This document shows, piece after piece, positions 14,638 through 17,178 of a stretch of DNA of 20,937 bases. The stretch is from a virus (taxonomy: Duplodnaviria > Heunggongvirae > Uroviricota > Caudoviricetes). The notes under the pieces are model-generated. The model was given only the letters and a program-made list of their open reading frames with translations. It was not told the origin of the DNA and did not search any database. The position numbers were made by a program, and so were the translations under genes. The first letter of the stretch is position 1. The number at the start of each line of letters is the position of its first letter. Location: positions 1 through 20,937 of IMG/VR virus record IMGVR_UViG_2609459819_000002. The stretch is one strand, 5' to 3'.

Positions 14638-15084
14638 GCTTCACCTCCACAGAGGTCAGACGCTGGATGCAAAAAAACGCAGGTGCATTTCTGCATCTGT
14701 GAAGGGAGAAGAGAATTTGGATTGTGTGTGCGCATAAACGTCCCCGTTTAGCGCAGAAGTCACCGAAGTTGTTCAGGCTCCGGTGATACAATTATGGCGA
14801 ATTGATTATTCATAATCAAACAAGATAAGGTCTCAAACTTCATGCAAGCCAAGATTTATTTCTGACAGAATCATACAAAGAAGCTATTGGTCAGAATCTA
14901 CTCGGACTGTAAAACATACACATAACCTTAAGCTCTCACTTTAAGCATTGTTGAAATAATACCCGTCAAGTACAACCTTAACCACGACTGGGATATTTCC
15001 CTAGCTACCACGAGTTGTACGGCTATTAAACTGTCGTTAAATTCAGTAAGAGAATTTCATCCGATAAGTCAAGGCATGTAAAAC

Positions 15085-16128
15085 ATGAAAATTAACAAGA
15101 TATTATCATCTGCAACACTATTGTATGGTATGTCAATGGCCATGTCGGTCGGGAGTTGTGCAACACCTGTCCAGACTAATCTTCCTGGTTACACCCCGGG
15201 TGCAGATATCATTAGTGTTTCACCGACCAGAAACCAGGTCGATCTCATTGGTGATGTTGTTTATTCCCAGATAAAAGGAACTCGTTCTGTCAGACAGCTT
15301 CACATGTCAGTTCTTGTCCCACGAACAAATGATTTAAAACCAGCCATTATTTATTATCCCGGCGGCGGATTCATGTCTTCTGAACATGACAAATTTATTG
15401 AAATGAGAATGGCTCTGGCTGAAGCTGGTTTTGTTGTGGCCGCTGTAGAATACAGAACAATTCCTGATACATTTCCAGCACCAGTTGAGGATGGGAAAGC
15501 TGCAATACGTTACTTGAGAGAACATGCCAGCGATTATGGGATTGATCCTCAAAGAATCGGAGTTCTGGGTGACTCTGCCGGTGGATGGCTTGCCCAGATG
15601 ATGGGAACTACAAATGGTGACAAAACCTTTGATAAAGGTGACTTTCTTCAGCAATCAGCAGATGTTCAGGCAGTTGCCACACTTTATGGGATTTCTGACT
15701 TGTTGAATATTGGCGAGGGGTTCCCTGAATCTGTGCAGGAGGTTCATCGATCTCCTGCCGTAACCGAAGCCTTAATGATCAATGGCCCTGCATTCAGAAG
15801 TTTTGCGGGAGCCCCCATAACAGCGTCAAAAGAAAAAGCGCTAAACGCCAGTCCAATCGGACATATGAAAGGAGTAAAACCCCCATTTCTTATTATGCAT
15901 GGTAGCAAAGACACTCTGGTTTCACCTGAGCAAAGCGCCAAACTATTCAGGATGTTGAAGAAGAACGGCGATAACGCTGAGTACGTTCTGGTAGAAGGGG
16001 CTGAGCATGGCGATAATACATGGTATCAGCCAATTATTATAAACAGAGTTGTTGAGTGGTTTACTAAAAACCTGGGAACCCCAATAAAAACCGCTACCCA
16101 ACAACAAAAAACAAACGCTGACCTGTAA
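15085..16128 (+). CDS. Lipoprotein alpha/beta-hydrolase, family IV (HSL-type) carboxylesterase
   Basis: 347 aa; signal peptide with a lipobox-like MSVGSC; oxyanion-hole PGGGF; nucleophile elbow GDSAGG; downstream HGSKDTLV and AEHGD motifs. AT-rich; opposite strand to the flanking phage genes. Confidence 0.8.
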   Translation: MKINKILSSATLLYGMSMAMSVGSCATPVQTNLPGYTPGADIISVSPTRNQVDLIGDVVYSQIKGTRSVRQLHMSVLVPRTNDLKPAIIYYPGGGFMSSEHDKFIEMRMALAEAGFVVAAVEYRTIPDTFPAPVEDGKAAIRYLREHASDYGIDPQRIGVLGDSAGGWLAQMMGTTNGDKTFDKGDFLQQSADVQAVATLYGISDLLNIGEGFPESVQEVHRSPAVTEALMINGPAFRSFAGAPITASKEKALNASPIGHMKGVKPPFLIMHGSKDTLVSPEQSAKLFRMLKKNGDNAEYVLVEGAEHGDNTWYQPIIINRVVEWFTKNLGTPIKTATQQQKTNADL

Positions 16129-16186
16129 AAAGCAGCCCACACTTATGCGGGCTAACCTATTTCACTCGATTCAAAAGAAATTATTT

Positions 16187-16519
16187 TTAATGTGGTGTGC
16201 TTCGTGAAAATAAATTAATAACCAACACACCGGCACAAATCAACATCATGCCTATAATAGCTGGCAGGTCCAGCCGTTGGCCGAAAAATCCCCATGATAG
16301 TAAGCTAATCAGGACAATACCGACTCCTGACCAGATAGCATAAGCAATCCCTGTAGGAATATAAGCCAGCGTCTGAGCTAATAACCAGAATGATGCACAA
16401 TAACAAATAATTGTACCAACAGATGGCCATAACCGTGTAAAACCTTCTGAAAACTTCATTAAGGTTGTACCAATGACCTCTGCAAGTATTGCACCACCAA
16501 GATAAATATAAGGATTCAT
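16187..16519 (-). CDS. emrE: SMR-family multidrug efflux transporter EmrE
   Basis: 110 aa from ATG at 16517-16519 (MNPYIYLGGAILAEVIGTTLMKFSEGFTRLWPSVG...), four-TM SMR protein near-identical to E. coli EmrE as recalled. The track ORF carries an 18-codon upstream extension. Confidence 0.95.
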   Translation of the reverse strand: MNPYIYLGGAILAEVIGTTLMKFSEGFTRLWPSVGTIICYCASFWLLAQTLAYIPTGIAYAIWSGVGIVLISLLSWGFFGQRLDLPAIIGMMLICAGVLVINLFSRSTPH

Positions 16520-16586
16520 AGCATATTCTTTCCTGTTCAAACTGGAGAGAATTGTACTACAGTTTGAACTCAACTCATCTGTTTCA

Positions 16587-16772
16587 TCATTGTGTACCCA
16601 TTGATGTTCTTTTATATACCCTCAATACCCGTTTCATCGCGGCACTCTGGCGACACTCCTTAAAAATCAGGTTCGTGCTCACCTTTCCTGCCCGTTCTCC
16701 CCGGGTAGCAAACCGATAATACACCGTTCGCCAGTCCTTACTATCAATGACCAAGATTCCTGCCCATATCAT
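16587..16772 (-). pseudogene. ren remnant (C-terminal fragment)
   Basis: 61-aa frame ending ...WRTVYYRFATRGERAGKVSTNLIFKECRQSAAMKRVL..., resembling the C-terminal part of lambda Ren as I recall it. Immediately upstream of emrE, where DLP12 has the renD pseudogene. Recall-based. Confidence 0.4.
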
Positions 16773-16965
16773 TTTAGCCGCAGCCTAATTTATGCTGGTT
16801 ATTGTTACGTGTGAATTCAGTTAGCTGCATAAATTGTCACGGAAGTGATACATCGATATTATCGAGAAATTCACTCGAATTTATACGATTGAAACTGCAC
16901 TTATATCTGTTTTAAATACTCCGAACACTCTTTACAACAACTGTGTGAAAATGGAGATAATTAAA

Positions 16966-17124
16966 ATGAAAAAGGGTTTGGCTATTTCATTCATTGCCGC
17001 CGTGTGTGCATTTGCTGCAAATGCGAGTGCTGAGGAAAGTAAAAACGGGTTTTATCTAACCGGTAAAGCCGGTGCCTCTGTGGCGTCGTTACCCCCGTAC
17101 ACACTGCCACTTTACGACCGTTGA
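16966..17124 (+). pseudogene. Truncated outer-membrane beta-barrel protein, N-terminal fragment (52 codons)
   Basis: MKKGLAISFIAAVCAFAANASAEESKNGFYLTGKAGASVASLPPYTLPLYDR*: a signal peptide with an ASA cleavage site, then a G-FY-TGKAGASV motif typical of OmpA-like or opacity-family barrels, then a premature stop. GGAG RBS. Not in the ORF track. Confidence 0.3.
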
Positions 17125-17178
17125 TCGTGGAGAGTTGATGGCGTTCGGCTCAAGGATTCTTGCCCGTCGGGAGGCTGC

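Follow-up and report, generated by a model that had tools for sequence, protein, structure and literature searches.

An esterase gene and emrE in the accessory slot between ren and ninB of a decayed lambdoid prophage at thrW, beside a deletion scar

The cryptic prophage DLP12 of Escherichia coli K-12 lies at argU and has the gene order intD-xisD-exoD-peaD-renD::IS3-emrE-ylcJ-ybcK-ybcL-ybcM-ylcH-ybcN-ninE-ybcO-rusA-ylcG-quuD. A second set of described relatives carries an esterase gene in the same region, namely the phages Perceval (OV696612, a prophage of the adherent-invasive E. coli (AIEC) strain LF82), 4A7, Lambda_4C10, D2, 1W, 3W and PhiR47_2, the argU prophage of F467 and a prophage of the sequence type 131 (ST131) strain EC958. 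We analysed a 20,937-nucleotide stretch of DNA (IMG/VR record IMGVR_UViG_2609459819_000002, positions 1 to 20,937; hereafter the window) that holds a prophage related to both. An earlier interpretation made from the letters alone (the sequence-only reading) held that the immunity and replication region of this prophage had been replaced by cargo: a lipoprotein esterase, emrE, a ren remnant and a fragment of an outer-membrane-protein (OMP) gene. Matches to Pfam, NCBIfam and PHROG and comparison with relatives place all four elements at 14638-17160. Very probably, this interval is the ren-to-ninB accessory slot of a DLP12-like early-right region in a decayed thrW prophage, with a deletion scar alongside; cargo and immunity loss would then be separate events, and the esterase would probably be an envelope enzyme acting on hydroxycinnamoyl or acetyl esters.

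The layout is DLP12-like, as the sequence-only reading had proposed. The window and DLP12 are 96% identical over 13243-14820 (ylcH to ylcG) and 95% identical over 16158-16800 (emrE and the 3' part of ren). The genes ylcH-ybcN-ninE-ybcO-rusA-ylcG-Q are collinear beside ren and emrE, with Pfam and PHROG matches for NinB and Q, and both elements have emrE as cargo beside a ren disrupted at the same position and have lost immunity and replication genes. The attachment site differs, again as proposed: the window's prophage sits at tRNA-Thr(CGT) beside proA (ARAGORN) and DLP12 at argU, and their integrase DNA is only about 73-81% identical. Unlike DLP12, the window has the esterase instead of ylcJ-ybcK-ybcL-ybcM, has no IS3, and combines a contractile-tail late region with a DUF3800 gene where DLP12 has nmpC.

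The cargo itself does not set the window apart from DLP12-type elements, contrary to what had been claimed. The F467 prophage, which occupies the DLP12 site, shares 98.7% DNA identity with window 13243-16801, esterase-emrE block included, in the order ybcN, ylcH-like open reading frame (ORF), esterase (+), emrE (-), ren homologue. In F467, unlike the window, ren is followed by complete P, O, ydaT, cro-like, cI-like, kil-gam-bet-exo and int genes. All of the esterase-bearing phages and prophages named above encode the protein at 99-100% amino-acid identity, in the same orientation and beside ybcN/ninB. Perceval, which is an active, plaque-forming prophage of LF82 (PMC9928086), reads P-RenD-EmrE-YbcK-esterase-NinB; EC958 reads P, inverse autotransporter, esterase, ybcN, without emrE or ren at that place. 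Unlike the window, these elements have kept the recombination genes together with ren-P-O-cII-cro-cI, and most of them have ybcK between esterase and emrE.

The interval between ren and ybcN is therefore a true variable accessory-gene slot of lambdoid phages, and the cargo slot of the sequence-only reading stands. Its content is ylcJ-ybcK-ybcL-ybcM in K-12 DLP12, ybcK and the esterase in Perceval, an inverse autotransporter and the esterase in EC958, hypothetical genes in the thrW prophage of S51, and emrE-ylcJ-ybcK in another thrW prophage whose immunity region is intact. In the window the slot is bounded by 14820-14824 and 16158 (blastn), the left edge being where homology to the cargo-less prophages (K-12, AW1.7, S51) stops. 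The EC958 slot (L005 10336-14601) has a 1421-aa inverse autotransporter of the intimin/invasin-like kind in place of emrE and ren, so adhesin-type cargo is possible there too.

We surveyed 5426 complete E. coli genomes for these parts. Esterase DNA of at least 95% identity occurs in 682 of them (12.6%), and 677 have the same ybcN|esterase junction as the window. Only two have the esterase directly beside emrE, the usual order having ybcK between them. DNA homologous to emrE and the 3' part of ren (window 16155-16698) is present in about 4280. We rejected the idea that the esterase is a core chromosomal gene, given its presence in 12.6% of the genomes and its position beside ybcN in 677 of the 682. 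Neither is it the unusual prophage cargo that it had seemed, as eight phage records also hold it (99.1% amino-acid identity) and it has its own PHROG family. Since the esterase adjoins ybcN wherever E. coli carries it, intact inducible phages included, it displaced nothing. Esterase and emrE are phage accessory genes, probably morons, and of the traits of such genes we saw presence/absence polymorphism, low GC and a terminator-like hairpin, together with a promoter scan no better than chance.

Slot content is independent of the presence of the immunity region. This follows from F467, Perceval and EC958, in which the same esterase, with or without emrE, coexists with complete ren-P-O-cII-cro-cI modules, so that cargo and deletion are independent and the immunity region cannot be described as replaced by cargo. 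A single replacement event that swapped N, cI, cro, O and P for one block of esterase, emrE, ren remnant and OMP would explain why the cargo lies between the nin block and the early-left genes with no immunity or replication gene left. It is very improbable, however, not only on account of those three prophages. The ybcN-side junction is fixed in the 677 genomes, the ren|OMP junction exists without the esterase in AW1.7-type prophages, and the interval is pieced together from at least three sources at distinct breakpoints (14824, 16158, about 16801 and 17090/17091). Judged from the alignments, the mosaic runs from thrW-phage backbone through an F467-type esterase cassette and an AW1.7-type emrE, ren remnant and OMP stretch back to thrW-phage backbone.

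We compared the window with the thrW prophages S51 (NZ_CP015995) and UID2309220003 and the 44.8-kb circle pCE-O153H30-A, all intact and 97-99% identical to parts of it. They share with the window the integrase, att site, early-left end, nin-Q-lysis region, DUF3800 and Iss/Bor cargo, and baseplate and tape-measure genes. The window differs in its slot content. Missing from it are about 8.6 kb of head/tail genes, the baseplate J-to-tail-fibre segment and an immunity, replication and recombination block of about 7.7 kb. S51 is the best whole-window match in the surveyed genomes: five pieces, scattered over 35 kb, cover 82% of the window at 97.6% identity. The window is a deleted derivative of an S51-type thrW phage. 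Pairwise blastn, from which collinearity and breakpoints were taken, equates window 1713-7648 with S51 locus 4001-9935, window 7676-14824 with 18517-25657, and window 17090-20937 with 35412-39259, the last beginning with the final 93 nt of a gene for a dam-like methyltransferase and taking in int, thrW and proA. The window has lost locus 9936-18516 (about 8.6 kb), which reaches from the tail tube gene into the large terminase gene and includes most of the latter. The second missing block, locus 27741 to 35411 (about 7.7 kb), holds the N-terminus of ren, P, O, cII/YdaT, cro, cI, genes at the rexAB position, kil, gam, bet, exo and most of dam.

The sequence-only reading was right that the immunity and replication genes are absent. 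A tblastn search with the S51 proteins P, O, YdaT/cII, cro, cI, Panacea, kil, gam, bet and exo gave no match in the whole window, and nine small ORFs of the interval, compared with Pfam (E<=0.1), gave no helix-turn-helix (HTH) match, the sole hit being a weak OMP_b-brl match of the OMP fragment. With cI, cro, O and P absent, the prophage is defective for immunity and replication. A functional temperate lambdoid prophage would have these four genes and those for terminase, portal and capsid; the window lacks the four, and the S51 stretch from tail tube to most of the large terminase is gone as well.

Two junctions mark the scar. At the first (16801-16804), the ren frame stops after ...TTTATGCTGGT(TA) and is followed by 162 bp of foreign upstream sequence and the OMP gene. 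The Ren remnant corresponds to residues 29-97 of the 97-aa S51 Ren, window 16618-16806 being 90% identical to that part of S51 ren, and covers positions 50-113 of the 116 in PHROG 142 ('Ren-like exclusion protein'); the N-terminal 30 or so codons are gone, so this is not a full-length Ren. The same junction recurs, at 100% over 312 bp, in six finished genomes: AW1.7 and five others carry a defective prophage at ybhB/ybhC (the lambda attB region) with emrE, a ren pseudogene, a 242-aa OMP, IS3 and a truncated integrase. This prophage is 98% identical to window 16158-17091, agrees with it exactly at the ren|OMP junction and shares its in-frame stop within ren. Unlike the window, it has a complete OMP gene followed by IS3, has no esterase, has ybcK after emrE and lies at another chromosomal site. 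The 42 codons of the OMP fragment are identical to the start of the 242-aa OMP_b-brl protein that is intact in AW1.7.

In K-12 renD, IS3C is inserted (NC_000913 568034/568035) 0-2 bp from the point at which the window's ren breaks off, and in AW1.7 (L003 14022-16545) a 1265-bp OMP segment lies exactly between the ren break point and the same IS3 end. These two observations suggest that the ren|OMP junction probably arose by an IS3-associated rearrangement. An 18-nt imperfect inverted repeat straddles the junction (16787-16835). At the second junction (17090/17091), OMP codon 42 runs out of frame into the 3' end of dam, with a 2-bp TA microhomology. The scar very probably formed in separate steps, the first a fusion of the 3' part of ren to the accessory OMP gene, probably IS3-associated, the second an illegitimate deletion through the 2-bp microhomology from OMP codon 42 to the dam 3' end. 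Two more breakpoints elsewhere removed the head/tail genes and changed the tail-fibre end. With these extra breakpoints, the element is a fixed cryptic prophage, heavily decayed, lambdoid and contractile-tailed, at tRNA-Thr(CGT)/proA.

The esterase matches Pfam BD-FAE (PF20434) over residues 80-290 (1.5e-44, 152.6 bits against a cut-off of 26.8), whereas Abhydrolase_3 scores lower (1.3e-22, 81 bits, against 153 for BD-FAE), and PHROG 3341 'esterase' is matched at 1.9e-129. All NCBIfam models for hormone-sensitive-lipase (HSL) subfamilies score it far under their cut-offs. The catalytic residues Ser164 (GDSAG), Asp276 and His308 and the oxyanion motif PGGG (92-95) are invariant in an alignment of 18 homologues. 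Where family IV enzymes are expected to have HGGG, all 18 sequences have PGGG (Y-[FY]-PGGGF), with Pro replacing His and GDSAG present. On these scores and motifs the enzyme, which the sequence-only reading had placed in family IV, appears related to that family and better filed as BD-FAE/CE10-like, sharing with CE10/BD-FAE esterases the BD-FAE domain, the GDSAG serine and the Asp and His of the triad. Four E. coli and phage copies that we compared differ by at most nine amino acids; the F467 copy is identical and that of Perceval has three substitutions. The gene was described as AT-rich, which holds to a moderate degree: its GC content is 44%, that of the 260 bp upstream 37% and that of ybcN 51%.

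A lipobox has the form [LVI][ASTVIG][GAS]-C, and in E. coli the lack of Asp at position +2 implies sorting to the outer membrane. The esterase N-terminus, MKINKILSSATLLYGMSMAMSVGSC25-A, has K2 and K5, a hydrophobic core, a lipobox-like V-G-S-C25 and A26. We thus predict an exported protein, lipidated at Cys25 and sorted to the outer membrane via Ala at +2. The lipobox Cys is kept in the F467, Perceval and EC958 copies and in homologues of 75-80% identity (P0002, P0005). The phage esterase and its nearest relatives differ in this respect from Dickeya and Pantoea homologues, which bear ordinary signal peptides and no lipoprotein signal.

No functional work on the phage esterase of E. coli came up in literature searches. 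The nearest solved structures by sequence are the rumen-metagenome enzyme Lip_vut4 (6nkf, 31% identity), the gut carbohydrate/acetyl-xylan esterases 6xyc and 6tkx, and Bacteroides 6mly, a bifunctional protein of glycoside hydrolase family 43 and carbohydrate esterase (GH43-CE) whose esterase domain belongs to Pfam BD-FAE. A fold search with an AlphaFold model of moderate confidence (predicted local distance difference test score, pLDDT, 68) led to the families already matched by sequence and gave no further clue to the substrate. At 56-80% identity, homologues are encoded on chromosomes or plasmids of Proteobacteria from plants and the gut, among them Dickeya, Pectobacterium, Pantoea, Klebsiella, Kosakonia, Rhizobium, Sphingomonas and Sutterellaceae. 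The Dickeya and Pantoea proteins are 63-70% identical to the phage esterase, and one from Dickeya aquatica is labelled 'Ferulate esterase' by its source. The feruloyl esterases FaeD and FaeT of Dickeya, known from the literature, also count among the CE10/BD-FAE enzymes. Dickeya aquatica (L007 6001-7032 and 10089-11075) has two BD-FAE paralogues 3 kb apart, the protein labelled 'Ferulate esterase' and a 46%-identical one. Both have signal peptides, and a divergent LysR gene stands beside the second only.

The two closest homologues outside E. coli each follow a phenolic acid decarboxylase gene (PF05870) at a distance of 17-34 nt, with a LysR regulator directly upstream in one of the two loci (L011). 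Decarboxylase and esterase are likewise paired in 11 of the 80 species-representative loci, with both gamma- and alpha-proteobacteria represented. This neighbourhood suggests a feruloyl/cinnamoyl esterase. From family membership and gene neighbourhood in relatives, the enzyme would most likely act at the cell envelope and hydrolyse plant carbohydrate esters of the hydroxycinnamoyl (feruloyl/chlorogenate-type) or acetyl kind. Homology between the phage copy and the chromosomal loci begins about 10 nt before the start codon, only the esterase ORF being kept. A more specific proposal, which we advance tentatively as a possibility, is that the phage lipoprotein is a surface or periplasmic hydroxycinnamoyl esterase that lambdoid phages captured from a phenolic-acid-decarboxylase/esterase operon of plant-associated Enterobacterales and spread to about one-eighth of E. 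coli. It would then be the basis of strain-dependent chlorogenic-acid hydrolysis, a case of a prophage altering how its host metabolises dietary polyphenols. Such hydrolysis is described as strain-dependent in human colonic E. coli in a passage of a review that cites three strains (PMC10340781), and the same phenotype is ascribed to Couteau et al. 2001 where that study is cited in PMC4335975.

An exported, probably envelope-anchored enzyme on temperate phages could also serve the phage itself by acting on envelope polymers (O-antigen, capsule, peptidoglycan or lipoprotein deacetylation), as a receptor change, superinfection exclusion or lysis aid. The family includes acetyl esterases, with weak NCBIfam matches to acetyl esterase, PaeX and AxeA1 and the acetyl-xylan esterase structures named above, and other cargo of these phages (Bor/Iss, OMPs, porins) acts at the envelope. 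We consider a phage-benefit role unlikely, however: the relatives of 60-80% identity do not belong to phages but are ordinary genes on chromosomes or plasmids of gut and plant-associated Proteobacteria, the nearest are coupled to the decarboxylase, and no O-antigen modification genes lie nearby.

Several findings pull against parts of the reading that we prefer, a slot with an envelope hydroxycinnamoyl or acetyl esterase beside a two-step scar. As to lipidation, the representative of the 90%-identity cluster (P0001, 1454 members) has Tyr in place of the lipobox Cys25, so some esterase alleles may not be lipidated. As to substrate, 68 of the 80 homologue loci have no decarboxylase neighbour, and no phenolic acid decarboxylase gene or remnant was found upstream of the phage esterase by tblastn or blastn, which together leave the substrate assignment weak. 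As to expression, a consensus promoter scan upstream of the esterase gave 6 sites against 5.9 expected from shuffled controls, and in LF82 grown in lysogeny broth (LB) the gene is not among the Perceval genes expressed five-fold above background (PMC9928086). With neither a promoter above chance nor five-fold expression in LF82, expression of the esterase is unproven.

The expression data, and a best solved match that is a rumen-metagenome 'lipase', would also suit a generic short-chain carboxylesterase or lipase without a specific role, or a silent passenger hitch-hiking with the nin region. We find this rather doubtful, though less so than a phage-benefit role. The ORF is intact, with invariant catalytic residues and at most nine amino-acid differences in the four copies, the DNA is at least 95% identical across 682 genomes, the lipobox is conserved in the copies examined, and the gene has stayed intact in a prophage stripped of most other functions.

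The scar has its own difficulties. The link of the first junction to IS3 is circumstantial: blastn with word sizes 7-11 found no IS3 remnant in the window. IS3-IS3 homologous recombination, inversion and adjacent deletion were each tried as the origin of the ren|OMP junction and rejected, as none yields the AW1.7 order ren-OMP-IS3. The OMP|dam junction occurs in 0 of the 5426 genomes, so there is no cross-validation against another assembly. It could, together with the absence of immunity genes, be an assembly artefact that joined two prophages of the source genome, the more so as E. coli genomes hold several near-identical lambdoid prophages (median 3 matching places per genome) and are prone to such misassembly. 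But the junction lies in unique sequence with no repeat shared between prophages, its 2-bp microhomology is typical of real deletions, the other independent deletions relative to S51 fit genuine decay, and six finished genomes confirm the ren|OMP junction next to it. An artefact is thus highly unlikely, and we keep to a deletion in the prophage itself.

Besides the esterase, EmrE, a proton-coupled multidrug exporter, is plausibly the only functional product of the interval, to judge from its sequence. It scores 239 bits against the NCBIfam NF042984 cut-off of 226 and is identical to K-12 EmrE at 108 of 110 residues, I100V and L104F being the differences, with the essential Glu14 present. In LF82, emrE is induced in Dulbecco's modified Eagle medium (DMEM) (PMC9928086). 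A hairpin between the convergent esterase and emrE genes is likely the emrE terminator. The features of the interval and its right flank are collected in Table 1.

Table 1. Features of the slot, the scar and the early-left flank (positions of the window)
Feature	Position	Strand	Remarks
ybcN (NinB/Orf-type)	14182-14637	-	PHROG 72 NinB/Orf 4.1e-51; first gene of the nin block, left flank of the slot; so named in F467, S51 and K-12 annotation
ylcH-like ORF, 33 codons	14634-14735	-	translation close to K-12 YlcH
AT-rich upstream region	14825-15084	+	37% GC; found only with the esterase cassette; presumed carrier of the esterase promoter
Esterase, intact, 347 aa	15085-16128	+	BD-FAE / alpha-beta-hydrolase-fold-3 serine esterase with lipoprotein signal
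GC-rich hairpin, then T-run	16133-16154	-	terminator scan; between convergent esterase and emrE
emrE, intact, 110 aa	16187-16519	-	small multidrug resistance (SMR) efflux; NCBIfam EmrE NF042984; Pfam Multi_Drug_Res 2.1e-35
Ren pseudogene	16587-16805	-	C-terminal ~70 codons, in-frame stop; S51 Ren, PHROG 142
Foreign segment	16804-17091	+	162 bp upstream sequence and OMP start; 100% identical to AW1.7-type defective prophages
OMP fragment	16966-17091	+	start of an accessory OMP_b-brl gene: 42 codons, covering signal peptide and first strand
dam-like N6-adenine methyltransferase, 3' end	17090-17182	+	last ~31 codons; out of frame with the OMP fragment
Hypothetical gene	17259-17474	+	early-left operon survivor
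TraR/DksA zinc finger	17573-17791	+	early-left operon survivor; Pfam
DUF4222	17839-18117	+	early-left operon survivor; Pfam
Xis-like HTH	18089-18439	+	early-left operon survivor; Pfam
Tyrosine integrase	18361-19479	+	early-left operon survivor; Pfam
tRNA-Thr(CGT)	19494-19569	-	attachment site; ARAGORN, S51 annotation
proA	19684-20937	-	directly after tRNA-Thr(CGT)

Leftward from the tRNA gene, the integrase is followed by the end of the plus-strand early-left operon and then by the minus-strand nin-Q-lysis region. The early-left end (17259-19479, +) is 98.9% identical to that of the S51 thrW prophage. The circle pCE-O153H30-A (NZ_CP172337.1), from a wild-bird E. coli, is the same thrW phage type assembled as a 44.8-kb free circle, with IS2 in ybcN and an Avs2 anti-phage gene beside int. 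Although recorded as a plasmid, it probably represents a prophage that has been excised or is replicating.

At the left of the window, the other large deletion relative to S51 lies at 7649-7675, with 27 bp of filler; it leaves an N-terminal terminase fragment adjoining a truncated tail-assembly gene. S51 homology ends at 1712/1713, within the GP46 baseplate gene. Beyond it come the C-terminal part of a tail fibre (1083-1751), a gene for tail-fibre assembly (718-1086) and one for a DNA invertase with Resolvase and HTH_7 domains (1-705); window 1-1712 resembles a Gin/Pin-type tail-fibre switching module, and the baseplate J and YmfQ genes are absent. The DUF3800 gene (11522-12325, +; 35-39% GC) lies between Q and holin on the opposite strand, is conserved in S51-type thrW phages and occupies the position of stx or nmpC in other lambdoid phages. 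A 176-aa ORF without a Pfam match (4877-5407, -; 35% GC), between the tape-measure and DNA-circularization genes and also present in S51, is likely accessory, as is a Bor/Iss serum-resistance lipoprotein gene (9694-10035, +) downstream of the lysis genes.

In summary, the structure of the locus is that of textbook prophage decay, every component being already annotated in public genomes or phages at DNA identities of at least 95%. What is new is confined to the second deletion junction and the exact combination, both of them expected decay products. The account of the region is corrected in that cargo slot and immunity loss are independent, and the ren-to-ninB slot emerges as a hot spot of recombination: closely related prophages at two or more attachment sites hold at least five different contents in it. 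A widespread but uncharacterised phage esterase, carried by about 12.6% of the complete E. coli genomes, with ST131 and AIEC LF82 among the carriers, gains from the gene neighbourhood of its relatives a hypothesis for its substrate, hydroxycinnamate esters. Chlorogenic-acid hydrolysis by colonic E. coli gives this hypothesis a concrete phenotype. If it is true, a hydroxycinnamate esterase would link temperate phages to the polyphenol metabolism of gut E. coli.

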